Source: an uncultured Chloracidobacterium sp.
Lineage (GTDB): Bacteria; Acidobacteriota; Blastocatellia; Pyrinomonadales; Pyrinomonadaceae
DNA: 25,717 nt
Assembly: GCA_964608335.1 (NCBI GenBank)
Contig: CAZSOE010000001.1
Coordinates: forward strand, 1-25,717
Direction of reading: 5' to 3'
How positions within the stretch are numbered: position 1 is the stretch's first letter; every line of letters begins with the position of its first letter. Positions 2,038 to 21,734 of this stretch are shown in pieces. Below the pieces are notes generated by a model. It worked only from the letters and a program-made list of their open reading frames with translations, did not search any database and had not been told where the DNA came from. A program made the translations under genes and the position numbers.

Positions 2038-2053
2038 TGCAAGCCCTATGCCA
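2038..2053 (-). promoter_or_regulatory. sigma54 -24/-12 promoter for the usp gene
   Basis: Minus strand TGGCAT-AGGGC-TTGCA, exact consensus spacing, 61 nt before the ATG. Confidence 0.85.
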
Positions 2054-2093: not shown

Positions 2094-2130
2094 TGCGGAA
2101 TAATTCGCGTTTTCCGCGAATCTTTCCGCC
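2094..2130. promoter_or_regulatory. Tandem putative upstream activator sites between divergent sigma54 promoters
   Basis: CGCGA-ATTATT-CCGCA (minus, 2094-2109) and CGCGA-ATCTTT-CCGCC (plus, 2115-2130); centres 21 bp apart. Confidence 0.6.
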
Positions 2131-2192
2131 TGATCAGCCCGATCCAGCCGTTGTGCTTACCTAATTACAGGCATCTTCGCCGCGAACGGCCA

Positions 2193-2208
2193 TGGAACAC
2201 CGGTTGCA
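2193..2208 (+). promoter_or_regulatory. sigma54 -24/-12 promoter for the AstE-like / GCS2-CBS / DUF5335 operon
   Basis: TGGAAC-ACCGG-TTGCA, exact spacing, 30 nt before ATG 2239. Confidence 0.8.
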
Positions 2209-2238
2209 GTTCTTGGATCGATAATGCGAGGTCCGCTT

Positions 2239-3483
2239 ATGACACCTATCACCGCTGTGGCCGAGATCGATGAGACCTCAGGCCGTCGCCTATCCGAACC
2301 GGGCGAGCCGCTGGTTGAGCCCGGCGAGCACCTGATCGCGTCATTCGGCCATGAACGCAATGGCCCGACGCTGATCGTGATCGGCGGTTTGCACGGCAAC
2401 GAACCGGCCGGCGTGATCGCGCTCAAGGATCTAGCCGGCGTTATCGCGAAGATCGGGCACAAGCTCAGGGGACGCGTCCTCTTCGTTGCGGGCAATACCA
2501 GAGCTCTCCGGAGCGGTGCCCGCTATCTGGACACCGACCTCAATCGCTGCTGGACGCACGCGATGATGCACGGAAAAGACGCGGCCGGTTTTCAAGACAC
2601 ATCGGAAGGGCGCGAGCTTGCCGAGCTTGACGACCTGCTGGACAGCATCCTGATCACCGCGATGGACGAGGTCTTTGTGATCGATCTGCACTCGACATCC
2701 GCCGAAGGGATCTCGTTTGCGACCGTCGGCGATACGCTCCGAAATCGGGCGTTCGCCCAAAAGTTCCCCGTGGCGATCCTGCTTGGTATCGAGGAACAAC
2801 TCGAAGGTACACTTCTCGAACACCTGAACAACGATGGAGCCGTTACGCTCGGGTTCGAGGGCGGACAGCATTTGTCGGTTCGCACGGTTGAGAATCACCG
2901 TGCGATCGTTCTGCTTGGCTTGGTCAACGCGGGAATCGTCGATCGGCGCGATCTGCCGGAGCTCGACACTGCGCTCGAACTTCTTTCAAGCGAAACGAAC
3001 GGTACGCAGCTCTTCGAAATACTGCATCGCCAGGCGATCCGGCCCGACGACGATTTCGAAATGGCGGGACACTTTGACAACTTCGAGCCGGTCGAGCGCG
3101 GCCGCGTGATCGCGCACGACCGCGGAGGACGGATCCGGTCGCCGAGATCGGGTCTGATCATAATGCCACTCTACCAGCGGCTTGGAAATGACGGCTTCTT
3201 TATCGGCCGGCGCATTTCACCGTTTTGGCTTTGGCTTTCCGGCGTGCTCCGGCGGGCGGGCCTGCAGAAGGCAGTTCACTGGCTACCCGGCGTTTCGCAA
3301 GACCCGGATGACCCAGCAACGTTGATCGTAAATACGAGCGTGGCGCGACTCTTCCCGCTGCAAGTCTTTCACTTGCTCGGATTTCGCCGACGGCGGTGGG
3401 TGGGCAACAAGCTGGTCGTCAGCCGCCGGCGACACGATACGACCGGCCCATTCAAATGGGAGGGAACGTCTGATGGGAGATAA
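2239..3483 (+). CDS. Succinylglutamate desuccinylase/aspartoacylase (AstE/AspA, M14-like zinc) family hydrolase with C-terminal extension, 414 aa
   Basis: GGLHGNEP (HxxE), DLNRCW, IDLHS, FEGG. Start moved from 2224 to ATG 2239 because of GAGGT at 2228-2232. Confidence 0.8.
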   Translation: MTPITAVAEIDETSGRRLSEPGEPLVEPGEHLIASFGHERNGPTLIVIGGLHGNEPAGVIALKDLAGVIAKIGHKLRGRVLFVAGNTRALRSGARYLDTDLNRCWTHAMMHGKDAAGFQDTSEGRELAELDDLLDSILITAMDEVFVIDLHSTSAEGISFATVGDTLRNRAFAQKFPVAILLGIEEQLEGTLLEHLNNDGAVTLGFEGGQHLSVRTVENHRAIVLLGLVNAGIVDRRDLPELDTALELLSSETNGTQLFEILHRQAIRPDDDFEMAGHFDNFEPVERGRVIAHDRGGRIRSPRSGLIIMPLYQRLGNDGFFIGRRISPFWLWLSGVLRRAGLQKAVHWLPGVSQDPDDPATLIVNTSVARLFPLQVFHLLGFRRRRWVGNKLVVSRRRHDTTGPFKWEGTSDGR

Positions 3484-5410
3484 GAAGGTTACGAGCGAAT
3501 ACGACGACGAACAGATGCGTCGCTTCACGCTTGCGGTGCTCAATGACCTACAGACGCTAGAGGCGATGCTAGACGCAGGGATGTTCGAGGAGGACGTCCG
3601 GCGGATCGGAGCGGAGCAGGAGATGTTCCTTGTCGACTCCGCGATGCGGCCGGCCCCACTGGCGATCGAGGTCATCGAACAGGCGCGCGACGGACGTCTG
3701 ACGACAGAGATCGGCCGGTTCAATCTCGAAGCGAACCTTACGCCGCGCGAACTTGCAGGTGACTGTCTTTCGCAAATGGAGACGGAACTCAACGAGATCA
3801 TCGGCGTCGTGCGAACCGCCGCCGGCGAGTTCGACGCCGACGTTGTGCTCGCGGGAATACTCCCAACCATCCAGCTATCCGACCTCACACACGAGAATCT
3901 CACGCCCAACCCGCGTTACGACGAGATCGACCGCGTTGTTACAAAGCTGCATGGCAAGGACCGCTTCATCCAGATCAAGGGCCTGGATGAGCTGCAGTTG
4001 ACGCTGCAGGACACCTATATCGAATTTTGCAATACAAGTTTTCAAATTCACCTGCAGACCGGCATTCGTGATTTCGTTAGGTACTACAACTGGGCGCAGG
4101 CATTGGCCGCCCCGGTCCTGGCTTCGGCTGTCAACTCGCCGCTGCTATTGAATCACCGCCTCTGGCACGAGACGCGGCTCGCCCTGTTCCAGCACGCGAC
4201 CGACACGCGGTCGCACACGCATAAGGAACGGAACCAAACGCCGCGCGTGAACTTTGGCGACCGGTGGGTGAATGATTCGATCATCGAAGTATTGCGCGAG
4301 GATGCGATAAGGTTCCGGATACTGTTGACACAAGCTGTCGAGGAGAATTCGCTCCGAACGTTGGCGAAGGGTGGTGTGCCCGCGTTATCGGCCTGGCGGC
4401 TGCACAACGGGACGATCTGGCGCTGGAACCGCCCGTGCTACGGCATAGTGGGCGACAAGCCGGGGCTTCGTATCGAGGCCAGATACCTACCGTCAGGCCC
4501 GTCCGTCGTGGACGAAATGGCGAACGCCGCATTCTTTCTGGGCTTGATGACGGAGATGCCTGATGAATTCGGCGACATAACAAAATACATGTCGTTCGAC
4601 GATGCGAAGAACAACTTCTTCAATGCCGCGCGGTACGGGCTGAACGGTCAGATCCGCGGACTCGACGGCAAGAGCCGTCGCGTCGGACGTCTGATCCTTG
4701 AGGAACTACTCCCGCGCGCGCGTCGGGGGCTTAAAAGCGCATCGGTCGACGAGGCCGACATCGAACGCTTACTGGCTGTCCTAGAGGCACGTGTTTCAAA
4801 TGAAACGTCCGGCGCAAAATGGATGCTCGAGTCGCTTGCCGCGATGGACAAGCGTGCCAAACCGAACGTTCGAATGCGTACATTGACGGCGGCGATGAAA
4901 GCAAATCAGATCGAAGGTAAACCGATGCACGAGTGGCCCCTCGCCGCGATACCCGAACAAAGCGAATGGATCGATAATTACAAGACCGTGGAACAGTTCA
5001 TGGCTGTCGATCTCTTTACCGTTAGACCCGAGGACATCCTCGACCTCGCGGCCAGTCTGATGCATTGGCGGCACGTGCGACACGTACCGGTCGAGGACGA
5101 TGCGGGCCGCTTGATCGGCATCGTTTCGCACCGCGACCTGATCGAGCTGCTCGCAAGCGGCCGTGCGGCGACCAGGACGCCTGTACTGGTCAGCGAAATA
5201 ATGAAGACCGGTCTCATCACTGTCTCACCGGAAACACCCACGCTCGACGCGCTCGAACTGATGCGCGAGAAAAACATTGGTTGTTTGCCGGTGATCAAGG
5301 ATGGCAGGCTGGTCGGGCTGGTTACGGCATACGATTTTCTCACCGTCTCGGCGAAACTCCTGGAGGAAAAACTCACCGGCCTGGCAAGGAGCCAGGCAAA
5401 GGCTGCATAG
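3473..5410 (+). CDS. Glutamate-cysteine ligase family 2 (carboxylate-amine ligase) fused to a C-terminal CBS pair, 645 aa
   Basis: IGAEQEMFLVD, TTEIGRFNLEAN, NTSFQIHLQ, SAVNSP, WRWNRPCY, RIEARYLPSG; CBS repeats VRHVPVEDDAGRLIGIVSHRD and IGCLPVIKDGRLVGLVTAYD; overlaps the upstream stop. Confidence 0.8.
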   Translation: MGDKKVTSEYDDEQMRRFTLAVLNDLQTLEAMLDAGMFEEDVRRIGAEQEMFLVDSAMRPAPLAIEVIEQARDGRLTTEIGRFNLEANLTPRELAGDCLSQMETELNEIIGVVRTAAGEFDADVVLAGILPTIQLSDLTHENLTPNPRYDEIDRVVTKLHGKDRFIQIKGLDELQLTLQDTYIEFCNTSFQIHLQTGIRDFVRYYNWAQALAAPVLASAVNSPLLLNHRLWHETRLALFQHATDTRSHTHKERNQTPRVNFGDRWVNDSIIEVLREDAIRFRILLTQAVEENSLRTLAKGGVPALSAWRLHNGTIWRWNRPCYGIVGDKPGLRIEARYLPSGPSVVDEMANAAFFLGLMTEMPDEFGDITKYMSFDDAKNNFFNAARYGLNGQIRGLDGKSRRVGRLILEELLPRARRGLKSASVDEADIERLLAVLEARVSNETSGAKWMLESLAAMDKRAKPNVRMRTLTAAMKANQIEGKPMHEWPLAAIPEQSEWIDNYKTVEQFMAVDLFTVRPEDILDLAASLMHWRHVRHVPVEDDAGRLIGIVSHRDLIELLASGRAATRTPVLVSEIMKTGLITVSPETPTLDALELMREKNIGCLPVIKDGRLVGLVTAYDFLTVSAKLLEEKLTGLARSQAKAA

Positions 5411-5423
5411 AGAGGTAAGGACA

Positions 5424-5768
5424 ATGACAAAACCCGGACGTGAACATGGATGGAAGCGATATCTCGACTTTGTTGGGAAACAGTGGTTGGGGCGGAAGAC
5501 CCGCCTCGGGATATTTGAACCGGACCGAAAAGCCATGCAGGACTACTGGATCGAGTGCGGGCTTCCGCTGGAAGGGATCGAGCTCGACGAGTCCCACGAC
5601 CGGCCAGCGGTCTACGTAAAGCTGCGCACCCTCGGCCACGAGGTCAGAGAACCGGTTCGTATCTCATTCCATCTGAGCAAGAGCGGTGATGAGGACGGCG
5701 TCGACATACTCGATGCTGCCGGCCGGATGACGGTCCTAAGGTTCGAATCGGATCAGGCCGTCGCCTAA
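5424..5768 (+). CDS. DUF5335-like small soluble protein, 114 aa
   Basis: RBS GAGGTAAGGA then ATG 5424. W..Y....GLPLEGI...HEVREPVRI...ILDAAGRMTVLRF aligns by eye with the protein at 21186-21572. Family name is from memory. Confidence 0.6.
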   Translation: MTKPGREHGWKRYLDFVGKQWLGRKTRLGIFEPDRKAMQDYWIECGLPLEGIELDESHDRPAVYVKLRTLGHEVREPVRISFHLSKSGDEDGVDILDAAGRMTVLRFESDQAVA

Positions 5769-5787
5769 CCGGCGGCAATCGTCCTCG

Positions 5788-5822
5788 GCCCCGCCTGGAT
5801 GAGTCGGCGGGGCTCTTCTTTG
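5788..5822 (+). terminator. Probable intrinsic terminator of the AstE-GCS2-DUF5335 operon
   Basis: GCCCCGCC / GGCGGGGC 8-bp stem with a 10-nt loop, then TCTTCTTT. Confidence 0.55.
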
Positions 5823-5833
5823 GCCTGATCCGG

Positions 5834-5849
5834 CGCGAATTTTTTCGCA
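5834..5849 (+). promoter_or_regulatory. Putative upstream activator site for the crp promoter
   Basis: CGCGA-ATTTTT-TCGCA, about 120 bp upstream of the predicted sigma54 start. Confidence 0.55.
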
Positions 5850-5934
5850 CTTTTTCAACGATCGGGCCCGCCAGGACTTGCACCTCCCTGTAAAATCGGC
5901 TATTAATACGGCCAAAAAATAAGAATGCGAAGCA

Positions 5935-5950
5935 TGGAACAGCGGTTGCT
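5935..5950 (+). promoter_or_regulatory. sigma54 -24/-12 promoter for the Crp/Fnr gene
   Basis: TGGAAC-AGCGG-TTGCT, nearly identical to the 2193 site; predicted +1 near 5961. Confidence 0.8.
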
Positions 5951-5961
5951 CCCGAGCATGC

Positions 5962-6759
5962 ATGATGAAAACCGCAATCCAGATCGATACGCAGGGGGTC
6001 GAGCCCGACGGCTGGCCCGCCGAGACGATGACGACGCCCGGGCGGCGAAAAGATAACGGGAGCTACTTTTGCCATCCTCCGGAAGACGATCTTCGGCAGT
6101 TTAGGGTGATGAAGCTTGTCAGGTCCATGCCAAAGGGAGCGACGCTCTTCATGCAGGGCCAGGAGACGACCGGCGTATATGTTCTCTGCGAGGGGAAAGT
6201 GAAGCTGACGGCCAGCTCCGCAGACGGTAAGACGATCATCGTCCAGATCGCCGAGCCTGGCGATGTTCTCGGCCTGAGCGCGGCAATAGATGGGGCGGAA
6301 CACGAAACCTCGGCCGTCGCGCTTGCTGACTGTCGTGTAAATTACTTTCAAACGGCTGACCTGCTTCGGTTATTGAACGGTTCCGCGGCGGCAAGCTTGA
6401 ACGCGGCAAAACTGCTGAGCCGAAATTATCAGGTGGCGCACCGGCAGATCTGCTCGCTGGGTCTGGCCGATTCGGTCTTTGATAAGATCGCCCGGCTGCT
6501 GTTGTCCTGGGCGCCGACGCAGAACGGCGCGAAGTGCGTTCACATAGACAATTTCTTTACCCACGAGGAGATCGCGGGAATGATCGGGTCATCGCGCGAG
6601 ACAGTCACGAGAACGTTAAAGACGTTTCGCGAGCGCGACCTTATCAGGGTTAGCGGCCGCGAGCTCGTGATAGAAAATGTGGCAAGGTTGCGAGCTGCGG
6701 CCGGTATTACGAACGGCGAACCGATAACCAACTCGTTCCCTTTGATCGATCGGATGTGA
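5962..6759 (+). CDS. Crp/Fnr family transcriptional regulator with CRP-type recognition helix
   Basis: cNMP-binding-fold region (LFMQGQ..GVYVLCEGKVKL...AEPGDVLGL) and HTH THEEIAGMIGSSRETVTRTL. The start is uncertain (5962, 5965 or 6028). Confidence 0.9.
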   Translation: MMKTAIQIDTQGVEPDGWPAETMTTPGRRKDNGSYFCHPPEDDLRQFRVMKLVRSMPKGATLFMQGQETTGVYVLCEGKVKLTASSADGKTIIVQIAEPGDVLGLSAAIDGAEHETSAVALADCRVNYFQTADLLRLLNGSAAASLNAAKLLSRNYQVAHRQICSLGLADSVFDKIARLLLSWAPTQNGAKCVHIDNFFTHEEIAGMIGSSRETVTRTLKTFRERDLIRVSGRELVIENVARLRAAAGITNGEPITNSFPLIDRM

Positions 6760-6798
6760 CCTTGCTCACATACGCGCAAGCGATCAGTTGATTAACCT
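6754..6798 (+). promoter_or_regulatory. Perfect CRP-type box with downstream -10 (class II-like promoter) for mtrAB
   Basis: ATGTGA-CCTTGC-TCACAT (6754-6771) overlaps the crp stop codon. TAACCT at 6793-6798 places the box centre at about -42.5. Confidence 0.8.
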
Positions 6799-6857
6799 GT
6801 ACCTGCAAACCTCCGCGAGGATCTACCGCATTTCCGGAGGGAACAAACGGGGTCAAA

Positions 6858-7883
6858 ATGGCAAATACTAACAGGATCAAGATTGTATTACTGGCCCTCT
6901 TCGCGATTTGCGTGGCCGTTTGGGGCATCTCGGCGACGCGTTCGCCCGTCTATGGCGAGGCCGTGGATCTCGACATGGGCGGCTCGGCAGGGTCCGAGGC
7001 GGCTTCGGTCGATGACTACGTCGGAAGTGAAGCCTGCCAGACCTGCCACGAAGACCAGTTCAAAGGGTTTTCGGGAACGAAACACGCGAAACTCAAAGAG
7101 GTTGCGGGCTGGAAGACCAAGGCGCAAGGATGCGAGTCTTGCCACGGCCCCGGCAAGAAGCACGTCGAGGATGCAACCGTTCCGGGCTCGATCATTTCCT
7201 TCAAGACAAAGAACGCCAAGGAAACCTCTGAGACGTGCCTGGCATGTCACGCCGGAAAGGAATCGCATAACAACTTTCGTCGTGGCGAGCACTGGCGTAA
7301 CAACATCGGGTGCACTGATTGCCATTCCCCTCACGGAGCTATGCATGGTGCGTTCAAGGTCGGTTCAACGACGCTTGTCAATCGAGCATCGGATGTGAAT
7401 CCTGCCCCGGCAATGCTCAAAACCAACGAGCAGAAGCTTTGCATCGCGTGCCACAACGAAGTTAGATCCCATTTCAGCAAACCATTCCGGCACAAAGTTC
7501 TGGAAGGGACGATGAAATGCAGCGATTGTCACAACGCACACGGCGGGTTTGAATCGAAGCAAACCAAACTCGGTATCGGGGCTGACGTGGCCTGTGTAAG
7601 ATGCCACGCGGATAAACAAGGTCCGTTTGTTTTTGAACACGCTCCGCTCAAGGTCGAAGGTTGTGCAGCATGTCATACGCCGCATGGTTCGGCGAATCCA
7701 AGATTACTTAAGCGGCATCAGGTGCGCCAGCTTTGTCTGGAATGCCACAGTGGCGTCACGGCGCAGCTCTCGGACACCCCGGCCGGCGGCCCGCATAACC
7801 AGAGGACATTATTGCAACGCAACTGTACGGCCTGTCACACGATGATTCACGGCTCGAACTCGAGCAATGTGTTCTTTAGATAG
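6858..7883 (+). CDS. mtrA: Decaheme c-type cytochrome, MtrA/DmsE/PioA/MtoA family, 341 aa
   Basis: Signal peptide; 10 CXXCH (CQTCH, CESCH, CLACH, CTDCH, CIACH, CSDCH, CVRCH, CAACH, CLECH, CTACH); family hallmarks GPFVFEHAP and HGSN at the C-terminus. The symbol indicates family, not proven orthology. Confidence 0.92.
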   Translation: MANTNRIKIVLLALFAICVAVWGISATRSPVYGEAVDLDMGGSAGSEAASVDDYVGSEACQTCHEDQFKGFSGTKHAKLKEVAGWKTKAQGCESCHGPGKKHVEDATVPGSIISFKTKNAKETSETCLACHAGKESHNNFRRGEHWRNNIGCTDCHSPHGAMHGAFKVGSTTLVNRASDVNPAPAMLKTNEQKLCIACHNEVRSHFSKPFRHKVLEGTMKCSDCHNAHGGFESKQTKLGIGADVACVRCHADKQGPFVFEHAPLKVEGCAACHTPHGSANPRLLKRHQVRQLCLECHSGVTAQLSDTPAGGPHNQRTLLQRNCTACHTMIHGSNSSNVFFR

Positions 7884-7904
7884 CGATGGATAAGAGGAGG
7901 ATCT

Positions 7905-10193
7905 ATGACAACCCGAAGTTTTAGGACAATAAGAGCCACGGTCGTCACAAACAAGATTATATTCATCGTTCTCATGGTGATCGGAGGGCTCGTTCTCACC
8001 GCGCCAAACCTGTGGGCCCAAACGCCGTCCCCGACCCCTTCCGAGAGTTTAACGACCGTTGGCGACTATGAAATAACTTCCAGTATAGAACTAGGGGTCC
8101 GCGGGCTTAAGGCTACTGGCAGCGACGAAAAATTTCGGAGTGATCTTAACTATCGCCCGGGCTTTCGGGTCTTTGACTCCAGCTTCCGGATGGAAACCAA
8201 ACGCGGAAAAGGGAAGCCATTTGATTCGTTGACGGTGACGTCGTCAGGCTGGAGTGGAGACCCCTCGGGCTTTGTTCGCGTAAATGCCGAAAAGAGTGGA
8301 GGATACACGCTTAATGCCAACCTTCGCCGTGTCAATCTGATCAATCGAGTCAATAATTTGATCCTTGCTCTTCATCCCTCGAATACAAGGCGTTACTTTG
8401 GTGATGTTGATTTGACGGTCTTTCCCGAAAGCCAAAACCTGCGGCTCCGTTTCGGAACATCGTTTTACAACGCTCGTGGAGCTCGAGGAGCTTCTTATCG
8501 AACGAGGGATGTCTTCCCTATTACGGAGAGGCTTCGGTCCGACACGATCGACCTACGCGGCGGGATCGATACCAAACTGGCGGGCTTTAATCTTTCACTT
8601 ACGGCGGGCGTAAGAGACTTTAATGACAGAGGAAGATTTGTGGTTGAAACGCGACAAGTGGGCGTTGCCGGAAGTTGTTTCTTCGGAGTCTGCATCTCGC
8701 CAACTGATATCAATTTCCTCAATCGGCTCGAAAGGCAAAACCCGACGGACGGAAAGACCAAGTACGGGATGTTCAGCATGCAGCGAACATTTGCGAAGAG
8801 ACTCGATCTTACGGGACGTTTTATTTATTCGGATACCGATCGGGATTTTAACATTCTTGATAACGTTAACTACGATGGTCAACTCAGGTATACGAATACT
8901 GCGGGGTCAAGCGTAACGTCGCCCGCCCTTTTTGCTGATGCGGACACCTACGAGATCACTGGTAGAGCAAAACGTCCGCAATCGAGAGGAGATGTGGGTT
9001 TGACGTTTGCTGCTACCAACAAGTTTAGGATCTCCAATACCTTTACGTTCGATCAATACAATAGCTTTGGCGATACCAATTACTACAATAAGCTTATCGC
9101 GAGGTGTCAGGTTGCTTCGGGTTCAACTTGTCCGGTGGCCGGTGGTCCGTTTGTAGCCGGTCTGGCGGGTGTTTCGTTCCTTGATACCAGGACGTTGTAC
9201 TGGTACTCGTATGGCTTCAAACGCTTTACAAACACCATCGAAGGAGATTACCAATTCAATAACAAAGTCGGGATCAATCTTGGGTACCGTTTTACTCATA
9301 GAAAGATAAGGCTTGCCCATGTCAATCGGATCGTCGATGATCTGGTTAACCGTCCGGTAAGCTCTTTCGTCTCGGTTTCGGCCGATGATGAGGAAGAAGA
9401 AAACACGGCTCATATTTTGTTGTTCGGAACCAAGATCAAGCCGACGTCAAACTGGACGATCTTTGCCGATGGCGAACGTGGGGAGGCAGACAACGCCTTT
9501 ATCCGATTGGCAAACTATGACTACACGAATTTCCGGGTCAGGAGCAACTGGAATTACAAAGAATTTACCTTCAACGTCTCGGGAATCATCCGGAATAACG
9601 AAAATCCCTCGCAGCCCGTCGATCCGAACACCGGTGTTCCCTTGGCGGCCCCATTCTTCGTGGCCAACGTTCGCACCCGTACCTTCTCCTCATATGTTGA
9701 TTATGTCCCAGACCCGCGATGGACGTTGAGCACCGGCTACACTTATAATTTTCTAACCAGCAAGACCGATATCGAGTTGCCTTCCCTCGGCCGGGGATTT
9801 AGCGAATTCTATATGAAGGACAACTATTTCTTCGTGGACGTTTCCGCACATCCGGTCAACCGGGTATCGTTTTATGGGAGTTACCGGTACAACAAGGATA
9901 GCGGTCAGGGGGATCGAGTTTCACCCACTCTGCTGCAGATCATCAGCTCATATCCCTTCCAGTCACATGTGCCTGAATTCCGGATAGCCATCAAGCTGAG
10001 CAAGAACATTGATTGGAATGTGGGGTACCAGTATAACGATTACAAAGAAAAACTTCAGATCGGCTACTATCTCTATAACGAACTGACCACAAATACTATC
10101 CCGCCAAATGCAGTTTATGCCCCGAACCAAAACTACAGAGCTCATCTGCCGTATACTTCTTTGAGAATATATTTCGGCGGCCGGGAACGGTAA
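7905..10193 (+). CDS. mtrB: Outer-membrane beta-barrel porin, MtrB/PioB-like, 762 aa
   Basis: Directly follows the decaheme gene (RBS GAGGAGG); signal peptide; alternating amphipathic strands rich in Y/F/G/N; ends LRIYF plus a short tail. Assignment rests on size, fold pattern and synteny. Confidence 0.75.
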   Translation: MTTRSFRTIRATVVTNKIIFIVLMVIGGLVLTAPNLWAQTPSPTPSESLTTVGDYEITSSIELGVRGLKATGSDEKFRSDLNYRPGFRVFDSSFRMETKRGKGKPFDSLTVTSSGWSGDPSGFVRVNAEKSGGYTLNANLRRVNLINRVNNLILALHPSNTRRYFGDVDLTVFPESQNLRLRFGTSFYNARGARGASYRTRDVFPITERLRSDTIDLRGGIDTKLAGFNLSLTAGVRDFNDRGRFVVETRQVGVAGSCFFGVCISPTDINFLNRLERQNPTDGKTKYGMFSMQRTFAKRLDLTGRFIYSDTDRDFNILDNVNYDGQLRYTNTAGSSVTSPALFADADTYEITGRAKRPQSRGDVGLTFAATNKFRISNTFTFDQYNSFGDTNYYNKLIARCQVASGSTCPVAGGPFVAGLAGVSFLDTRTLYWYSYGFKRFTNTIEGDYQFNNKVGINLGYRFTHRKIRLAHVNRIVDDLVNRPVSSFVSVSADDEEEENTAHILLFGTKIKPTSNWTIFADGERGEADNAFIRLANYDYTNFRVRSNWNYKEFTFNVSGIIRNNENPSQPVDPNTGVPLAAPFFVANVRTRTFSSYVDYVPDPRWTLSTGYTYNFLTSKTDIELPSLGRGFSEFYMKDNYFFVDVSAHPVNRVSFYGSYRYNKDSGQGDRVSPTLLQIISSYPFQSHVPEFRIAIKLSKNIDWNVGYQYNDYKEKLQIGYYLYNELTTNTIPPNAVYAPNQNYRAHLPYTSLRIYFGGRER

Positions 10194-10206
10194 AGTTCGT
10201 TGAGAC

Positions 10207-10247
10207 AAAAAAGGCGTATCTGGAAGCAGATACGCCTTTTGCTTTTT
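10207..10247 (+). terminator. Intrinsic (possibly bidirectional) terminator between the porin and Rieske genes
   Basis: AAAAGGCGTATCTG-GAAG-CAGATACGCCTTTT perfect stem, then GCTTTTT. Confidence 0.75.
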
Positions 10248-10401
10248 GAAAGCAACTCTTCCCGGGAAAGTTCGGCGGCGGCCGAAAAGATGTTGGCTTC
10301 CGGCCAGGCCCAGGCTTGTAACTCAATAGGTGGACCTGCGTCGCGGAAAGTAGTTGTTCTGGAACGCTGTTTAGTGTCTTGCTCAAAGAGGAGAGTCGGT
10401 T

Positions 10402-10860
10402 GTGCCTGAGGAATTCGAAGTCAAACCAGAAGAAAAAATCGGTAGGCGAAGATTATTAGATTATCTATTAGGAACAAGCACTTTCGCCACACTGGTTGCT
10501 ATCTTTTATCCGGTGCTCAAATTCATGATCCCGCCGGAAGTTGTCGAGGCGCAGCAGAACTCGGTCGTCGCCGGGAAAAACGCTGACTTCCCTCCTAATA
10601 GCGGAAAGATCTTCAAGTTCGGCAGCAAGCCAGGCCTGATGATCCGAACGGAATCGGGCGAGTTGAAGGCATTCTCGGCTAGCTGCACCCATCTTGACTG
10701 CATCGTTCAATACGACCCAGCGTCGAAATCGATCATTTGTGCCTGCCATAACGGCAAGTACGATCTTGCGGGCAAGAACATCGCCGGTCCGCCGCCCCGG
10801 CCCTTGGATGAATTCATCGTAAATGTGAAAGGAGATGAGATCACCGTAACGAAGGCGTGA
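10402..10860 (+). CDS. qcrA: Rieske [2Fe-2S] subunit of a Rieske/cytochrome b complex, 152 aa
   Basis: Tat-like anchor [10 protein letters not shown] plus a TM helix; boxes CTHLDC and CACHNGKY with the disulfide Cys pair retained; C-terminal GPPPRPL. Confidence 0.92.
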
Positions 10861-10867
10861 TCAGTTT

Positions 10868-11935: not shown

Positions 11936-11948
11936 ATGAGACAGTCAA

Positions 11949-14880: not shown

Positions 14881-14905
14881 TCCGTCTCCTATGATATACG
14901 CGAAT

Positions 14906-14992
14906 GCAGACAAGCCAAGGCCGCCCGCCTTGGCTCGCCGGACTCATTCAAATCTCCGGTTTGCCTTGGCTCAGGCGGCCGTGGCTGTCTGC
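14906..14992 (-). repeat. GC-rich inverted/direct repeat element between the cyt c and imcH-like genes
   Basis: Outer arms GCAGAC-AGCCAcGGCCGCC / GGCGGCCtTGGCT-t-GTCTGC; inner CCGGA/TCCGG hairpin; GAGCCAAGGC occurs twice (14927-14936, 14963-14972). Confidence 0.7.
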
Positions 14993-15017
14993 CAACTGGC
15001 CTATCGTCACCCAGATC

Positions 15018-15356
15018 TTAGTCGGCCTTTTTTAGTCCCCGCATGTACTCGGCCAGGGCTTTTGCCTCGGCTTCGGTCATGCCCTTTGCCTCAAAGCCCG
15101 GCATGTACGGAGGTTTTTCTCCCTTCCGGCCTTTGAGGATCGCTTGAACGTGAACGTCTTCCGACTTCGTCGCATCGTAAAACTTCGAAGCATTCGGTAA
15201 ATGGCAAGCCGCGCATTTCGCCTTGTAAGCCGCGGCCGGATCGTCAACAGCGCTTGGGACAAGGTCCCGGGCACGAGCTGTCTTGAACACAAAAAGCGAC
15301 ACGATCGCCGCCGCGAACATCATGATTGCGATAACTTTTATTCGATTGATCCTCAT
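15018..15356 (-). CDS. Monoheme class I cytochrome c, periplasmic, 112 aa
   Basis: Signal peptide ending TARA; single CAACH; distal Met in PYMPGF. Start at ATG 15356 with SD GAGGAAGA, not 15458. Confidence 0.88.
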   Translation of the reverse strand: MRINRIKVIAIMMFAAAIVSLFVFKTARARDLVPSAVDDPAAAYKAKCAACHLPNASKFYDATKSEDVHVQAILKGRKGEKPPYMPGFEAKGMTEAEAKALAEYMRGLKKAD

Positions 15357-15398
15357 CGTTTCTTCCTCGAATTCGGGGTGTTCCCAGCAGTTATCACG

Positions 15399-15414
15399 TG
15401 CAAAGAGCATGCCC
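15399..15414 (-). promoter_or_regulatory. sigma54 -24/-12 promoter for the monoheme cyt c / imcH-like genes
   Basis: Minus strand GGGCAT-GCTCT-TTGCA, exact spacing, 42 nt before the ATG. Confidence 0.72.
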
Positions 15415-15510
15415 GTCGTCGCGGAAGATCGGCACTCCCATAACTCCAAATAGAACAACGAGTTACGATAGCAACGATCCGGCGTTACCGGGTCGCAGAA
15501 CTTAGTTCAC

Positions 15511-15526
15511 CGCGTAAAATTCCACA
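15511..15526. promoter_or_regulatory. Putative upstream activator site
   Basis: CGCGT-AAAATT-CCACA, about 100 bp upstream of the 15399-15414 sigma54 site. Confidence 0.5.
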
Positions 15527-15540
15527 CCTTGCGCGGGACG

Positions 15541-16422
15541 CTAAAACCTAAAACGATCGCCTTGGTGGCACCGCTTACAATTCGCAAAATCGTCGGGTCC
15601 GAACGCACGCTTTCCGTTGTGGCAACCTCCGCAGCTGAGCGAGTTCGCGGGAGCGAAGTGCATTGACGCCAGGGGCGACGAGACCTGCCGTCCGCGAGCC
15701 GAACCCGCGCGGACCGTATGACAGGTCGCACAACTCATTCCCTCCGAAATATGTCTCGCATGGCTGAATCGGAGCTGAAACGCCCTCGTCCATTCTGGGG
15801 TTCGCACCAGCCGTCCGGGCTGATGACACGTGCTGCACGATGCCATCCCGGTCGATGCGTTTGCCGAATGGCACCGGAAGCAGGTGGCGTGGGCCGATGA
15901 GCCCGACGGGATCGACCGTGCGACTCCATTCCTTTGCGACGCGTGGCATGTAGCACAGCCTGTGCGCTGGTGCTTCGCATGATTGAACCTGGCTGCGAAA
16001 CTTCGCAACGGAGGAAACCGTTTCATTGCACCTGTCTCTGGATTAGTGTGACAGATCGTGCAGATCGGGCTCGACCGATCATTGAACTGAGCGGTATGAC
16101 AACCTGCACATGGCAGGTGGTTCACCTTGCCCGGAAAACCCATTCGAGGACTGTTCGTGTCCCGTCGGTGACAGATCAGGCAAGGTAAGCGCGAGTGAAA
16201 TTGGTTGCTGTGCGTAAACCGTGCAAAATCGGCCGCAGCATTTCCAGCAGGCTCGACTGATCCGTTTTCCGTCCAAGGCCCGATCTCAAAACCATGGGCC
16301 CGCCCCGACGAGGAAACATAGACAAACAGCAAGCCGCACGCGATTATGATCAGAACCTGAGTCAGCCGGCGAATAGTGATCGCTCTGGGTACTGCCTGCA
16401 AGTTATTGATATCGTGTGACAT
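15541..16422 (-). CDS. Nonaheme cytochrome made of three c7-type triheme modules, 293 aa
   Basis: Signal peptide; 9 CXXCH in three repeats of FxH-x2/4-H..CXXCH..H..CXXCH..CXXCH. Confidence 0.85.
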   Translation of the reverse strand: MSHDINNLQAVPRAITIRRLTQVLIIIACGLLFVYVSSSGRAHGFEIGPWTENGSVEPAGNAAADFARFTHSNQFHSRLPCLICHRRDTNSPRMGFPGKVNHLPCAGCHTAQFNDRSSPICTICHTNPETGAMKRFPPLRSFAARFNHAKHQRTGCATCHASQRNGVARSIPSGSSAHATCFRCHSANASTGMASCSTCHQPGRLVRTPEWTRAFQLRFSHARHISEGMSCATCHTVRAGSARGRQVSSPLASMHFAPANSLSCGGCHNGKRAFGPDDFANCKRCHQGDRFRF

Positions 16423-16432
16423 AACCAGGCGA

Positions 16433-17578
16433 TCACTTTCCCGCCGCCGCGGCGACCGCGTCCGTGTGGGACTTCGGCACCGGCATCCTCCCCAATACCA
16501 GATGGCACTTTACGCACGTGAATCTAGCGTCGCTCTTGCGTTTGTCGATCTCGAAATTGAGAGCGCCGCCGTCATCGGACGTCGGCGTCGCGTGACATGT
16601 CGCGCAGGCCGTCACGGGCACGCGCTTTGTCGCGGCATCGAGCGTATTCATTGCGGTCACGTTGTGGCAAGTCGCGCACGCCAACTCTTCGTGCGCAAAG
16701 AACTCGTGCCGAAAGGTCCCGGATGAATCGCGTTTTGCCCATGCATCTCGCATGGGTTTCTGCTGTATGCCTATGACAGCGGCGAGTTTCAGGTCAAGGT
16801 CGGCCGCAGGCTCCATCGGCCGCAGTTTGTGGCACGTACTGCATGTCTGCGGCTCTGGCTGGATACCGGTATCGGCAGAATGACACGTGAAGCACGTTGT
16901 GTGTCCCAGCGGCGTACTCTTGAACGTACCTTTCTTCAGCCAGAATTTGTCGCCCAGGTCCGCGGGAGGTTTCGTTAGATATTCATCGTCCGATTTCCCC
17001 TGGGGGGCGACCGTCTGATGACACACGGCACAGCTTGCCTCGGGTTGATCGACGTACGATGCTCGAATGAACGCCGCGCCCGAGCGCTTGTGTGCCGAAA
17101 CTATCTCGATATGCTTGTCGTGCGGGAACTGAATGGCAAAGTCCGATCGGTGCGGTTTCCCTTTTGGTGAGTTATCAAAGATCTCGCGCGGATTTGGAAA
17201 GGGGTGCCGGGACGAATTCCGAGGCGATGGGTTTGTGTGACAGATCGAGCAGATCGCGGGCGGAGATCCGCGAAAGAACTGTTGGGTGTGACACTTCAGA
17301 CATGATTCGTGGCGTGGATATTCGGTGACATCAGGAAAAGCCGCATCTCCGGTACGCACCTTGTTCCAGTTCGAGGACGGAAACTTATGACAGGAGCTGC
17401 ACTCGATTCCGTGGGCTTTTGTAGCGTGCGGGAATTCGCTGTATTTTGGTTTTTTCGGCGTCGGTTGCGGCGCGGGGTTGGCGGCGAGCGGTCTATCGGA
17501 TACAAAAAGCGCCGCACCGGCGGCAAAAAGGGCCAGGACGGTGAGTTGTAAGACCGTTCCCGAGCTTCGCGAAGTCAT
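16433..17578 (-). CDS. Nonaheme cytochrome made of three c7-type triheme modules with insertions, 381 aa
   Basis: Signal peptide, Pro-rich linker, 9 CXXCH (CSSCH, CLKCH, CSICH, CAVCH, CFTCH, CSTCH, CATCH, CATCH, CVKCH), same FxH..H repeat pattern. Confidence 0.85.
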   Translation of the reverse strand: MTSRSSGTVLQLTVLALFAAGAALFVSDRPLAANPAPQPTPKKPKYSEFPHATKAHGIECSSCHKFPSSNWNKVRTGDAAFPDVTEYPRHESCLKCHTQQFFRGSPPAICSICHTNPSPRNSSRHPFPNPREIFDNSPKGKPHRSDFAIQFPHDKHIEIVSAHKRSGAAFIRASYVDQPEASCAVCHQTVAPQGKSDDEYLTKPPADLGDKFWLKKGTFKSTPLGHTTCFTCHSADTGIQPEPQTCSTCHKLRPMEPAADLDLKLAAVIGIQQKPMRDAWAKRDSSGTFRHEFFAHEELACATCHNVTAMNTLDAATKRVPVTACATCHATPTSDDGGALNFEIDKRKSDARFTCVKCHLVLGRMPVPKSHTDAVAAAAGK

Positions 17579-17599
17579 TGTAACAACTACACTTGCAAC

Positions 17600-17642
17600 A
17601 TTTTAAGCCAACTGCTCACTGCTAAATGTGATAGAAGTCACA
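17600..17642 (-). promoter_or_regulatory. Class II CRP-type promoter for the nonaheme pair
   Basis: AAATGTGA-TAGAAG-TCACA (core 17627-17642) and minus-strand -10 TAAAAT (17605-17600); the box centre falls at -41.5. Confidence 0.85.
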
Positions 17643-17667
17643 CTCTGCGTCGGGCGAACCCGCATAG

Positions 17668-17683
17668 TGTGAAGTTTTCCGCA
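17668..17683. promoter_or_regulatory. Putative activator/operator site upstream of the ntrC-like gene
   Basis: TGTGA-AGTTTT-CCGCA, intermediate between the CRP box and the UAS-like motif; centre 41 bp from the CRP box. Confidence 0.45.
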
Positions 17684-17714
17684 CTTCGTTTATTCTAGTG
17701 CCGTCCCTCATTTT

Positions 17715-19115
17715 ATGTCATCCGCAACGGGAAAGGTCCTGATCATTGATGATGACCGCTTTGTGCGCATGGCGCTCGGCGAGGCGCTGAGATCTTGGGA
17801 GTACGATGTAATCGAAGCGGACACCGTGAGATCGGGCGAGCAGTTGTTCGCCGATGAGGAACCACCGATCGTCCTGCTCGATATCGACCTGCCCGACGGC
17901 TCGGGTCTGGATCTGCTCACGCGGATCAAAGAAAGAAACCCCGAATCGGTCGTCGTCATGATAACCGGAAATGTCGATATCGAGAATACGGTGGCGGCGC
18001 TCCGCGGCGGTGCGCACGATTTTATCGGCAAGCCGGTCAGGATCGAGGAGCTTCGGGTAACGCTCCGAAACGCAAGCGAGACGCGCGAGCTTCGGCGGGA
18101 GGTGAGCCGAGCGCGTAGCGAGAGAAAGCGCGGTTTTAGTTTTGACGAGATCATCGGCGAGTCTGCCGCGATGCAGAAAGCGATAGACCTTGCGCGCCGC
18201 GTTGCCGAATCGGATGTCTCATCGATCTTGCTGAACGGCGAGACGGGCACCGGCAAGGACCTTTTCGCGCGGGCGATACACTTCGCCTCCGATCGCGCCG
18301 ACCGGCCCTATCTTGCTATCAACTGCGCGGCCCTGCCAGCCAGTTTGATCGAATCCGAACTCTTTGGCTACGAAAAGGGCGCGTTTACCGACGCGAAATC
18401 GAGGAAAGAAGGATTGTTCGAACAGGCCCACGGCGGGACGATCTTTCTGGACGAGATCGGCGAGATGGAACTCGCTCTTCAGGCGAAACTTCTTCGCGTG
18501 CTCGAGGAGGGTGAGTTCCGACGCGTCGGCGGTCTGAAAGATATCAAGTACGACGCGCGGATCATCGCTGCTTCAAACAGGAACCTGAAACGCGAAAGCG
18601 AGGCGGGAAACTTTCGTCTCGATCTCTACTTTCGCCTTTCGGTGATCCAGGTGGACATTCCGCCGCTTCGCGAGCGCGGTGACGACGTACTTCTGCTTGC
18701 CCGGTACTACATTGAGAAAGCGAATCAGAAGCGCCCGACGCGCGTGCTCGGCGATCTTTCGCCGGAGGTTCAAAAGCTGTTCAGAACTTACGATTGGCCG
18801 GGGAACGTACGCGAGCTAAAGAATGTGATCGAGCGTGCCTCGATTCTCGAGGACGGCAAGCTCGTAACCGCAGCGCACATGCCCGCCGACATGCTTGGCG
18901 GCTCGCGAACAGTCGGGACCGGCGATTCGGCCCTATCGCTTCCGGCCGGCGGCGTATCGCTCGAGACGGTCGAGTTTGAACTCGCAAAACAGGCCTTCGA
19001 CCGCGAGGGCGGCAACCTCACGCGCGCGGCGAAACTCCTCGATATTTCACGCGACCAGCTCCGTTATAAGCTGCGGAAAGGCGGGTTCGAGCCTCATGGG
19101 ACTGAAACGAAATGA
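17715..19115 (+). CDS. sigma54-dependent response regulator (REC-AAA+-HTH; NtrC/AtoC/ZraR family), 466 aa
   Basis: IIDDD, LLDIDLP (phospho-Asp), Walker [39 protein letters not shown], Fis-type [23 protein letters not shown]. Confidence 0.95.
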
Positions 19116-21049
19116 CCGACGGTGCAGAAATTGAGGCGGCTCACTCGGCGGGAGTCGGCAAGGAAGTTTTCAAGGAGTTGTCTGACCTCAAGTTCGCGCT
19201 CGACCAATCGGCTATTGTGGCAGTGACCGACCAGACAGGTCGCATCACATACATCAACGACAAGTTCTGCGAAATATCAAAATACTCTCGTGACGAGCTG
19301 ATCGGTCAGGACCACCGGATCATCAATTCCGCATATCATCCAAAGGAGTTTATCCGTGAACTGTGGACGACGATCGCGCGCGGTCAGGTTTGGCGTGGCG
19401 AACTCCGCAACCGGGCGAAGGACGGAGCGATCTACTGGGTCGATACGACCATCGTTCCGTTCGTTGACGAGCGGGGCAAGCCGTTCCAGTACGTCGCGAT
19501 CCGGTACGAAATAACGCAGAGAAAGCTCGCAGAAGAGCGGATCCGTCAGCAGGCATCGCTGCTCGACAAGGCGCAGGACGCCATCCTCGTTTGTGACCTG
19601 AACTTTCAGGTTCTCTATTGGAACAAAGGCGCTGAAAGAATGTACGGCTGGCCCTCGGCTGAGGCTTTTGGCCGACACATCGCGGACCTGGTGAACGGGG
19701 GCGACCGACGGGACGTTGAGGCGGTTCGTTCGGCGCTTGAGACTTTGGACGAGTGGAAGACTGAGGTCCGCCAGGCAAGGCGCGGCGGCGAGAGGCTGAT
19801 CGTCGAGACCCGCTGGACGCTCGTCCGCAACGAAAAGGGCGAGCCGGACTACTTTCTGATCATCAACACAGACGTTACGGAACAGAAACGCGCTGAAGAG
19901 CATCTCCTGCGGGCCCAGCGAATGGAATCGATCGGTACATTGGCCGGCGGGATCGCGCACGACCTGAACAACATCCTTTCGCCGATAATGATGGCCGTCG
20001 ACATGCTCCGTCTTCAAGACCCGGACCCCGGAACGGCCCGCTGGCTGAAGATGATCAAGGAGAACTCAGAACGCGGGGCCGATCTCATCAAACAGGTGCT
20101 AACCTTCGCACGCGGCATGACTGGTGAACGGATCCCGGTCCAGCTGAAACACCTCATCAAGGAACTCATAGGCGTGCTAAAAGAAACTCTCCCGCGCTCG
20201 ATCACACTCGATTTCGAGATCGAACCTGAACTCTGGACGATCTCGGCCGATCCGACACAGATCCATCAGGTGTTGATGAACGTGTGTATCAATGCGCGTG
20301 ATGCGATGCCCGGCGGCGGCCGCCTGAGCATATCGGCGGCGAACACGACGGTCGATGACAACTATGCGAGGATGAATATCGATGCGCTTCCCGGTAATTA
20401 TGTCCTCCTGACGATAACCGATTCGGGTGTCGGAATGTCACACGATGTGGTCAAGCGCATCTTCGACCCGTTCTTTACCACCAAGGATGTGGGTGAAGGA
20501 ACAGGTCTCGGCCTGGCGACGACCATGACGATCGTCAAGAGCCACGGCGGTTTCATAAATGTGTATTCCGAAGCGGGAAAGGGCTCGCGGTTTTCTGTTT
20601 ACCTCCCCACCGCCGACACTGGCCACCAACCGGCCGTCTCCGGGTCGGCCGCGGCGCTTCCGCGGGGGAGGGGCGAGATGGTGCTCGTCGTCGATGACGA
20701 GGAGAATATTAGGGATGCTGCCGAAGCAACGCTTACACAGTTCGGCTATTCAGTGGCGACTGCGGCCGATGGAGCAGAGGCCCTCGCCGTATTTGCCGAA
20801 GAACGCGGCGCTGTGAAGGCAGTGCTTACCGACATGGCAATGCCGCATATGGATGGCCTGGCCCTCGTCCGCGCTCTAAAGCGTCTCGACCCGGCCATCC
20901 CGATCATTGCCATGAGCGGCCTCGTCAACGAAGCTCAGTCGGTCGAGCTCGAGACTACAGGCGTCAAGGCTTTTCTTGCCAAGCCATTTACCGCGGAGAA
21001 GCTACTCAGCTCGATCGCCGAAGCGCTCGGGTCGGCTGACGAATCGTGA
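19112..21049 (+). CDS. Soluble PAS-PAS hybrid histidine kinase with C-terminal receiver, 645 aa
   Basis: Two PAS/PAC domains, H-box [13 protein letters not shown] boxes ([26 protein letters not shown]), [11 protein letters not shown]; no TM segment; ATGA overlap with the regulator. Confidence 0.95.
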
Positions 21050-21102
21050 TCTTCCATAAACTTTGCGCCGATCCCCACACCCGGCTCTCACGTTCAATGC
21101 AC

Positions 21103-21118
21103 TGGCACAGAATTTGAT
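21103..21118 (+). promoter_or_regulatory. Deviant sigma54-like site for the DUF5335 gene
   Basis: TGGCAC-AGAAT-TTGAT: perfect -24 element and spacing, but -12 GC is replaced by GA. Confidence 0.45.
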
Positions 21119-21185
21119 TAACCTTTATTCCGGGTATCCTTACCGACAGCCCATCGTCGCGCTTCTCCGGCGACAGGGAGGAATA

Positions 21186-21572
21186 ATGAATTACGCGATT
21201 GACGATAAGGAATGGCCGCGTTTTTTTGAGGAGCTTAGCAGGTATCGCTATGGCTGGAAGACCGCGATAGAGATCCTGAACTCCGATGTGGGTGGACAGG
21301 TCCTCACGGAGGGGCTAGCGCTCAACGGTGTTACCGCCGCAAAGGCCAATGGAAAGCCCGGGATCGAGATATCGATTGGACTAAGCGCCGAAGCTCATCA
21401 GACCCACACGCTCCGACAACCGGTGCGCGTCTCGCTTTTTGCTGGAACCGAAGCCCATCGTGACGTAGTGAGCATCGAAGAACTCGACGGAACACAGACA
21501 CTTATCAGGTTCATCGAGCCGCGGGGCCTGCTCCTCGCATTCAAAGAAATGCGTATGGCGGCCGTGGCCTGA
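21186..21572 (+). CDS. DUF5335-family protein, 128 aa
   Basis: SD GGGAGGA, ATG 21186; EWPRFFEELS...IEIL..DVGGQ...GLALNGV...HQTHTLRQPVRV...IEELDGTQTLIRF. Family recalled, not searched. Confidence 0.7.
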   Translation: MNYAIDDKEWPRFFEELSRYRYGWKTAIEILNSDVGGQVLTEGLALNGVTAAKANGKPGIEISIGLSAEAHQTHTLRQPVRVSLFAGTEAHRDVVSIEELDGTQTLIRFIEPRGLLLAFKEMRMAAVA

Positions 21573-21587
21573 GAGACAAACGAAAAA

Positions 21588-21624
21588 CGCGAAAAAAATC
21601 TGCGGGCGCGCGAGTTTTTCCACA
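21588..21624. promoter_or_regulatory. Tandem putative upstream activator sites
   Basis: CGCGA-AAAAAA-TCTGC (weak) and CGCGA-GTTTTT-CCACA; centres 21 bp apart, as at 2094-2130. Confidence 0.55.
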
Positions 21625-21665: not shown

Positions 21666-21681
21666 CGGCACGCCTTTTGCG
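21666..21681 (+). promoter_or_regulatory. sigma54 -24/-12 promoter for the small membrane protein
   Basis: CGGCAC-GCCTT-TTGCG, exact spacing. Confidence 0.75.
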
Positions 21682-21734
21682 AAGATGAGCGGCAATGGCC
21701 CTTGGGCCTATCTTCAGCGGAGGTCATTTTACGT

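Follow-up and report, generated by a model that had tools for sequence, protein, structure and literature searches.

Which protein reads a palindromic element that recurs between the genes of a cytochrome-rich acidobacterial locus? The locus is a stretch of 25,717 nt (hereafter the window; G+C content 56%) from an uncultured Chloracidobacterium sp. of the Pyrinomonadaceae (contig CAZSOE010000001.1). It encodes, on the plus strand, a Crp/Fnr-family regulator (5962-6759) and an NtrC-family response regulator (17715-19115), with a block of multihaem c-type cytochrome genes between them (6858-17578); all gene coordinates are those of a Pfam-based gene map of the window. The element, a 16-bp dyad, is real and conserved. 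We propose, with a probability of roughly 0.68, that it is the enhancer, or upstream activating sequence (UAS), of a sigma-54 regulon, that the NtrC-family activator encoded at 17715 is its binder and that a Crp cascade belongs to the circuit. A literature search turned up neither this motif nor a sigma-54 stress regulon in Acidobacteria. This suggests that motif and regulon are undescribed, while the kind of element (an NtrC-type UAS) is well known. In soil, the Pyrinomonadaceae and other Acidobacteriota belong to the most abundant bacteria, and almost nothing is known of their transcriptional control.

Dyad sites and candidate promoters

The dyad has the consensus YGCGRAW-N2-WTYCGCR, with an A/T-rich core and its GCG and CGC triplets 11 bp, one helical turn, apart. 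An earlier note on this DNA had placed seven such sites between genes. The sequences read there and the gene map confirmed both their positions and their intergenic character. The six sites scoring at least 14.9 bits with a matrix derived from the window are all intergenic. The first two, TGCGGAATAATTCGCG (2094..2109, 19.8 bits) and CGCGAATCTTTCCGCC (2115..2130, 15.2 bits), lie between the divergent promoters of a tandem universal stress protein gene (usp; 1119-1976, minus strand) and an AstE/AspA-like gene (2224-3483, plus strand, start given as 2224 or 2239), such that the distal and proximal roles of the two sites swap with the promoter considered. Together with the gene of a GCS2-type ligase carrying a CBS pair (3473-5410, plus strand), the AstE-like gene forms a proposed target operon (2224-5410, plus strand); usp is the proposed target on the other side. 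The site CGCGAATTTTTTCGCA (5834..5849, 20.5 bits) is upstream of the crp-like gene, CGCGTAAAATTCCACA (15511..15526) upstream of a cytochrome c/NapC-like operon on the minus strand, and TGTGAAGTTTTCCGCA (17668..17683) 32 bp before the ATG of the activator gene. The weak site CGCGAAAAAAATCTGC (21588..21603, 10.1 bits) stands 21 bp upstream of CGCGAGTTTTTCCACA (21609..21624), which precedes the gene of another proposed target, a small membrane protein of about 101 residues (21735-22040, plus strand; ATG at 21735, in the frame of the open reading frame (ORF) 21702-22040). Both pairs, 2094/2115 and 21588/21609, are spaced by exactly 21 bp, as had been claimed.

Raw counts by themselves do not support the motif. 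The literal pattern has four matches in the window for 1.35 expected, a number reached by 4 of 100 shuffles, and one match (23754) is in coding sequence. When the pattern was loosened to allow up to two mismatches, the window contained nine matches for 9.2 expected. These numbers, like the mostly chance-like matches of a metagenome scan described below, speak for a chance or compositional pattern, i.e. functionless A/T-rich intergenic DNA flanked by CG-rich triplets. In the absence of raw-count enrichment, the case for the motif rests on position and conservation.

As to position, a scan for GG-N10-GC revealed five good intergenic -24/-12 elements in the window. These candidate sigma-54 promoters are TGGCATAGGGCTTGCA for usp (2038..2053, minus strand), TGGAACACCGGTTGCA for the AstE-like and GCS2-CBS genes (2193..2208, plus strand), TGGAACAGCGGTTGCT for the crp-like gene (5935..5950, plus strand), GGGCATGCTCTTTGCA for the cytochrome c/NapC-like genes (15399..15414, minus strand) and CGGCACGCCTTTTGCG for the small membrane protein (21666..21681, plus strand). 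The fourth falls within the mechanical ORF 15018-15458; the orthologous cytochrome c of a syntenic locus (L087) has 118 residues, and the true start of the gene is probably near 15374. Six of the seven sites lie upstream of an outward-facing -24 element, in agreement with the earlier note, at distances of 49.5 to 105.5 bp, one of them slightly beyond the claimed limit of 100 bp. Measured from dyad centre to GG, the distances are 49.5 bp (usp) and 92.5 bp (astE-like) for site 2094, 70.5 and 71.5 bp for site 2115, 94.5 bp for 5834, 105.5 bp for 15511, 71.5 bp for 21588 and 50.5 bp for 21609.

The seventh site, 17668, has no -24/-12 element (GG-N10-GC) between it and the activator ATG, and a sigma-54 promoter for the activator gene was accordingly rejected. 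We also rejected such a promoter for the cytochrome operon starting at 17578. Its minus-strand candidate (TGGCTT/TTGCA) has an 11-nt spacing and is not conserved in L087, and is therefore read as part of a sigma-70-type -10 element (TAAAAT).

Recurrence of the dyad in other genomes

With a weight matrix that drew on the seven window sites and no others, combined with the -24/-12 rule, we scanned 80 loci (numbered with the prefix L) fetched using the regulator as query. The seven loci of the closest relatives are all from Acidobacteriota: L001-L003 (Pyrinomonadaceae/Blastocatellia), L004, L005 and L008 (Vicinamibacterales) and L006. Together they hold 19 dyad-promoter pairs within about 110 kb, compared with around 10 in about 1.2 Mb of the other 72 activator loci, which come from many phyla and include some of high G+C content. 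Per kilobase, this is an enrichment of about 20-fold. In the seven loci the matrix gave 28 matches and 19 pairs, whereas column-permuted, dyad-symmetric matrices gave on average 4.8 and 0.6, and none of 300 permuted matrices reached 19 pairs. The ORFs behind these promoters begin 25-45 nt after the GG, and their products include Usp (L001, L004, L005 and L008), GCS2-CBS (L003), a PEP-synthase-like protein (L008) and activators. A usp gene downstream of a dyad and a -24/-12 element was also found in L086. Pairing at 20-23 bp recurs in L001, L003, L005, L006, L008 and L083, but it is not universal, and several promoters have a single strong dyad.

Syntenic loci (L081, L082/L086, L083-85 and L087) were retrieved by exact-protein look-ups and compared promoter by promoter. 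Dyad and -24/-12 element recur before the orthologous genes in every locus checked. For example, the distance from dyad centre to GG at the crp promoter is 94.5 bp in the window, 91.5 bp in L081 and 102.5 bp in both L082 and L083. At the cytochrome c/napC-like promoter it is 105.5 bp in the window and 103.5, 104.5 and 101.5 bp elsewhere, and at that of the small membrane protein it is 50.5 bp in the window, L087 and L086 alike. At usp, where the window has 49.5 bp, the dyad lies 48.5 bp from TGGCATATCTTTTGCA in L082 and 50.5 bp from GGGTACGAGGCTTGCC in L001. The 2193 promoter has counterparts at L082 2191 and, before GCS2-CBS, at L003 7898, and the crp promoter in TGGAACGGCGGTTGCT (L081) and TGGAACGATAGTTGCA (L083). 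Among the dyads themselves, site 2094 corresponds to L082 2082, site 15511 to L082 16417, L083 19102 and L087 7786, and site 21609 to L087 13917 and L086 14544; the weak site 21588 keeps its left half in L087. The AstE-like and GCS2-CBS gene pair is also found in L082 and L083, and GCS2-CBS is directly upstream of the activator in L003. The small membrane protein is conserved as well, with 81% identity to L087 14074-14349 and 49% to L086 14681-14956.

The dyad forms a conserved island in the alignment of the crp upstream regions (with L081, L082 and L083) and in that of the cytochrome c gene, where the -24/-12 element is a second island. The crp alignment misplaced this element for L082 and L083; in the scan it was recovered from each orthologue. 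In the syntenic loci 13 sites reach 14.5 bits or more, every one of them intergenic. Such islands in otherwise diverged intergenic regions, the near-constant promoter distances across genomes, the enrichment of pairs, which permuted matrices never matched, and the intergenic position of all strong sites in related loci argue against a pattern without function. We consider this explanation very improbable, and it is strongly disfavoured by the data.

The distances also have a regular structure. Pooled over loci, they cluster near 50, 61, 71, 82, 92, 103 and 113 bp, which places the dyads at about -75 to -135 relative to the sigma-54 start sites. With a period of 10.5 bp, the Rayleigh R is 0.74 in the distant orthologues alone and 0.25 in control pairs, in statistics that treat orthologous and tandem sites as independent, so that N is overstated and the p-values are optimistic. 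Even so, the periodicity is plain to see.

The NtrC-family activator and its kinase

The protein encoded at 17715 combines a REC domain, a sigma-54 AAA+ domain (PF00158, 1.1e-68) and an HTH_8 domain with the recognition helix SRDQLRY(K). It is followed on the plus strand by a hybrid histidine kinase (19112-21049; PAS, PAS, HisKA, HATPase, REC). The activator falls under every NCBIfam equivalog cut-off (the best hit is AtoC at 413.8 bits for a cut-off of 714; NtrC scores 395.6 for 558.6), and by these curated cut-offs it is not an NtrC, AtoC, ZraR or NtrX equivalog. The nearest relatives of this regulator and of the Crp-like protein are in metagenome-assembled genomes of Acidobacteriota, mostly of Pyrinomonadaceae/Blastocatellia.

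The presence of the dyad follows the type of recognition helix. The seven related loci with pairs all encode an activator with an (S/N)RDQxRY helix, while other activators have helices such as SRNALRY, SRYALRY or SRHTLRY. Pairs were found in 7 of the 8 loci with (S/N)RDQxRY activators and in 10 of the 72 others (Fisher p = 4e-5). Moreover, dyads lie directly upstream of the activator gene, with no -24/-12 element following, in five loci: at 17668 in the window, where the site is identical to that at L087 9948, in L086 (9913, TGTGGATTTTTTCGCG), in L008 and in L005, which has a tandem pair 13 bp before the ATG of the first of its two activators, downstream of a candidate -24/-12 element. A dyad directly at the activator's own gene is the arrangement expected from autoregulation by the binding protein, and the 17668 dyad is probably such an autoregulatory site. 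Sigma-54 promoters require an enhancer-binding protein, and in the crp and cytochrome c alignments we saw no conserved upstream element besides the dyad. The earlier note had named the 17715 regulator as the binder of the dyad. Orthologous conservation, phasing and enrichment with the RDQ helix, all of them sequence evidence, support the dyad as a tandem, in-phase upstream site for this activator.

The dyad could also be genuine and be bound by a protein encoded elsewhere, i.e. another enhancer-binding protein, a repressor or an architectural protein. Acidobacteria encode many such activators (our protein search returned thousands of relatives), and paralogues share the helix. The conserved dyads at the activator's own gene in five loci, the correlation with the RDQ helix type and the clustering of the modules around activator and kinase genes in distant Acidobacteriota speak against this alternative, to which we give a minor but real chance.

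The kinase hints at the signal. Its first PAS domain (residues 35-148) matches PDB 3EWK (E = 1.5e-57, about 60% identity over 114 residues), which we take to be the FAD-binding (flavin adenine dinucleotide) sensor MmoS; the next matches are Aer and NifL, whose PAS domains are FAD-type redox sensors. The domain is 64-70% identical in the kinases adjoining the activators of L004, L006 and L008, from other acidobacterial classes. A PAS of FAD type points to the sensing of redox state or oxygen. The downstream genes form a coherent set (Usp, CBS-domain protein, cytochromes) that fits a redox-sensing kinase.

Two further observations concern activators of this type. The sigma-54 contact loop of the window's activator reads GAFTDA, where the canonical loop is GAFTGA. 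In L011, a locus from Anaerolineales with an activator of helix SRDQLRYR, two TGYG...CCCCA dyads 19 bp apart lie just after the stop codon (2677-2711), with no -24/-12 element found nearby; they may represent a related motif outside Acidobacteriota.

The Crp-like protein and the CRP-type boxes

The second regulator of the window would bind a different sequence. The helix of the Crp-like protein, SSRETVTRTLK, carries the R-E...R contacts known from E. coli CRP, and among solved structures the protein is closest to GlxR, M. tuberculosis CRP and E. coli CAP. These proteins recognise TGTGA-N6-TCACA. The window contains three perfect boxes of this kind, for 0.46 expected at up to one mismatch, and two of them are intergenic. 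The box TGTGACCTTGCTCACA (6755..6770) lies just after the crp stop codon, upstream of the multihaem cytochrome gene at 6858, and is conserved at L081 954, L082 10797 and L083 10737/11335. The box TGTGATAGAAGTCACA (17627..17642) lies upstream of the multihaem cytochrome operon 17578-15541 (minus strand) and is conserved at L082 18537 and L087 9908. Its centre would be 41.5 bp from the transcription start deduced from the -10-like TAAAAT, in class II CRP geometry; a sigma-70 scan of this region chose other hexamers. The boxes at 6755 and 17627 are absent from the earlier note and distinct from the dyad motif. The Crp-like protein is probably their binder. The third box, TGTGATCGAGATCACA (22887-22902), is within the QueA coding region and may be due to chance or be an internal site.

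The earlier note offered, as an alternative, that the dyads are degenerate sites of this Crp/Fnr-family protein, which would then co-activate or repress these promoters and its own gene. Some features agree with this. The dyad has the same 5-6-5 geometry, with outer triplets 11 bp apart; one dyad, 5834, is upstream of crp itself; crp is syntenic with the target genes in L081-L085; and E. coli CRP acts at some sigma-54 promoters. Dyads and boxes nevertheless differ systematically. Position 3 of the half-site is C in 41 of 54 dyad half-sites and T in all 16 box half-sites, position 6 is A in 44 of 54 and in none of 16, and the A/T fraction of the core is 0.87 in dyads and 0.31 in boxes. The RE..R helix predicts TGTGA, whereas the dyad half-sites read YGCGRA, and perfect TGTGA boxes exist apart from the dyads, at conserved orthologous positions. 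A CRP-type site would be expected near -41.5, -61.5 or similar of a sigma-70-type promoter; the dyads are found 50-113 bp ahead of -24 elements. Finally, no crp homologue occurs within 10 kb of the dyad-promoter modules of L003-L008, the only loci that are informative here: synteny was discarded as a discriminator in the close relatives. From the SRETVTR helix, the separate boxes, the differences between the motifs and the lack of crp near the L003-L008 modules, we pair the activator with the dyad and the Crp-like protein with the TGTGA boxes. We found no support for degenerate Crp sites and consider them distinctly unlikely.

Several points weigh against the activator as binder and against the regulon drawn around it, besides the overstated N of the phasing statistics. 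The promoters are candidates called by consensus and backed by conservation at orthologous positions, and the assignment of the dyad to 17715 is likewise read from sequence. Sites 17668, 15511 and 21609 have a TGTGA/TCACA-like half that the Crp-like protein could touch. Since crp and the activator are on the same contigs in close relatives, their co-occurrence with the dyad cannot separate the two regulators. L011 has an RDQ helix and no dyad-promoter pair. Two loci encode tandem paralogous activators with the same helix INRDQVRYRIEKFG (L005 8459-9802 and 10001-11344; L006 about 5140-6479 and 8048-9385), which makes the choice of this activator over a paralogue inferential. A metagenome scan with a composite pattern (GCGAA-N4-TTCGC, a gap of 35-65, TGGMAY-N5-TTGC), too loose for the size of the collection, gave mostly chance-like results: among the matches listed, most had G/C-rich cores, wrong flanks and no homologous neighbours, and phasing was weak (R 0.2-0.26).

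A proposed regulon

We propose the following model for the activator. Dimers of the 17715 regulator would bind the dyad through their C-terminal Fis-type helix-turn-helix (helix SRDQLRY). The hybrid kinase at 19112, with its FAD-type PAS, would phosphorylate the regulator, probably on a redox or oxygen signal. The regulator would then oligomerise on single or 21-bp-spaced dyads and, from the correct face of the helix and 50-113 bp upstream of the -24 element, remodel the sigma-54 holoenzyme. The promoters presumably switched on in this way are those of usp, the AstE-like and GCS2-CBS genes, crp, the cytochrome c/napC-like genes and the small membrane protein. The dyad at the regulator's own gene, which lacks a sigma-54 promoter, would probably serve autoregulation. 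Because crp has its own dyad and -24/-12 promoter, we read the circuit as a probable activator-to-Crp cascade. Its second tier would be the Crp-like product, working at the separate TGTGA-N6-TCACA boxes of the multihaem cytochrome operons.

A wider reading is that of a redox or low-oxygen stress regulon across several classes of Acidobacteriota (Blastocatellia/Pyrinomonadaceae, Vicinamibacteria and others), which an FAD-PAS kinase and an RDQ activator would drive, with unusually strict phasing of the enhancer and with Crp-driven cytochrome modules. This previously undescribed master switch is a tentative proposal, to which we give somewhat less than even odds. If true, it would be the way in which abundant soil Acidobacteria cope with fluctuating oxygen. 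The FAD-type PAS of the kinase and the cytochrome targets suggest such a redox or oxygen switch, which would matter for survival in soil microsites changing between oxic and anoxic states. A defined motif and a candidate activator/kinase pair make the regulon testable, with members predictable from acidobacterial sequence alone. The predicted members are universal stress proteins, the CBS-domain ligase, the Crp-type regulator and multihaem cytochromes.

Neighbouring genes

The exact-sequence look-up of the window's Crp-like protein found no record. The predicted transcription start of its gene, at about 5961, adjoins the first ATG, and most orthologues have about 246 residues; the true start is possibly the ATG at 6028.

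The cytochrome block also encodes a Rieske/cytochrome b pair, a NapC/NirT-like protein and a small cytochrome c. Within it, a protein of 762 residues (7905-10193) has no Pfam or NCBIfam match. In L081, L082, L083 and L087 it always comes after the first multihaem cytochrome, and it may be a partner, as yet uncharacterised, of the cytochrome module. A strong terminator-like hairpin 3' of its gene (10213-10236, GGCGTATCTG...CAGATACGCC followed by a T-run) divides it from the Rieske/cytochrome b operon, for which we found no dyad, CRP box or -24/-12 element in the window.

Genes of the family DUF5335 recur beside regulon genes or activator/kinase genes (21063-21572 on the plus strand in the window, L082 5396-5734 and 8229-8618, L087 13495-13881), and one of those in L082 shares with YtxH an operon that is preceded by a dyad and a -24/-12 promoter. 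NCBIfam has no named equivalog for the activator, the kinase, the 762-residue protein, DUF5335 or the small membrane protein. At the edges of the window are a TauE gene (346-1122, plus strand), a tRNA-Leu gene (anticodon CAA; 22127-22215, plus strand) and, 3' of the latter, QueA. The tRNA overlaps the start of the mechanical QueA ORF (22186), whose Pfam domain begins at residue 37; hence, the true QueA start is further downstream.

Comparison with known systems

The closest general likeness is to the UAS of NtrC-family activators, of which NtrC at glnAp2 and DctD at dctA are known examples. As in those systems, a dyad-symmetric site suited to a dimer with a Fis-type helix-turn-helix is present in one or two copies, spaced by whole helical turns, 50-115 bp upstream of the -24 element (about -75 to -140 from the start). 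A regulator with REC, AAA+ and HTH_8 domains and a partner kinase are encoded nearby, and there is a site at the regulator's own gene. The sequence is different (YGCGRAW-N2-WTYCGCR here, TGCACC-N5-GGTGCA for NtrC), many promoters have one strong site, and the targets are stress and respiratory genes rather than those for nitrogen or C4-dicarboxylates.

CRP and GlxR sites share with the dyad a length of 16 bp and the 5-6-5 geometry; a Crp-family gene is in the cluster, and a true CRP-type box is 41 bp from a dyad (17627 and 17668). They differ at half-site positions 3 (C instead of T in the dyad) and 6 (A in the dyad), in the A/T-rich core of the dyad and in the kind of promoter served, sigma-54 for the dyad and sigma-70-type, at -41.5/-61.5, for CRP. 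The DosR/DevR hypoxia regulon of mycobacteria is likewise under two-component control, linked to redox or oxygen and rich in universal stress proteins. DosR/DevR is of NarL/LuxR type and acts at sigma-70-type promoters, with no sigma-54 and no AAA+ activator, unlike the system described here.

NmpR of M. xanthus is an NtrC-like regulator linked to oxygen limitation and hypoxia that has tandem GCGCA-N5-TGCGC dyads at sigma-54 promoters, a regulon including a universal stress protein and CBS-domain proteins, and a site in the operon holding the regulator gene (PMC11841059). It is the nearest published functional analogue that we found. The system proposed here resembles it in having an NtrC-like regulator, dyads upstream of sigma-54 promoters, Usp and CBS targets and a site at the regulator gene. 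The sites differ in sequence and spacing, with a 15-bp dyad and preferred gaps of 14-15 bp in NmpR (PMC11841059) and a 16-bp dyad with 21-bp pairs here. The Nmp sensor NmpU is described as haem-dependent, in a multi-kinase relay (PMC11841059), in contrast to the single hybrid kinase with an FAD-type PAS. The Myxococcota activators among our control loci have only about 40% identity and a different helix. By this comparison, the NmpR system is an analogue, not an orthologue, and the dyad lies outside the NmpR regulon. Conceptually, the proposed circuit is an ordinary one of NtrC type, which extends known biology and overturns none of it.

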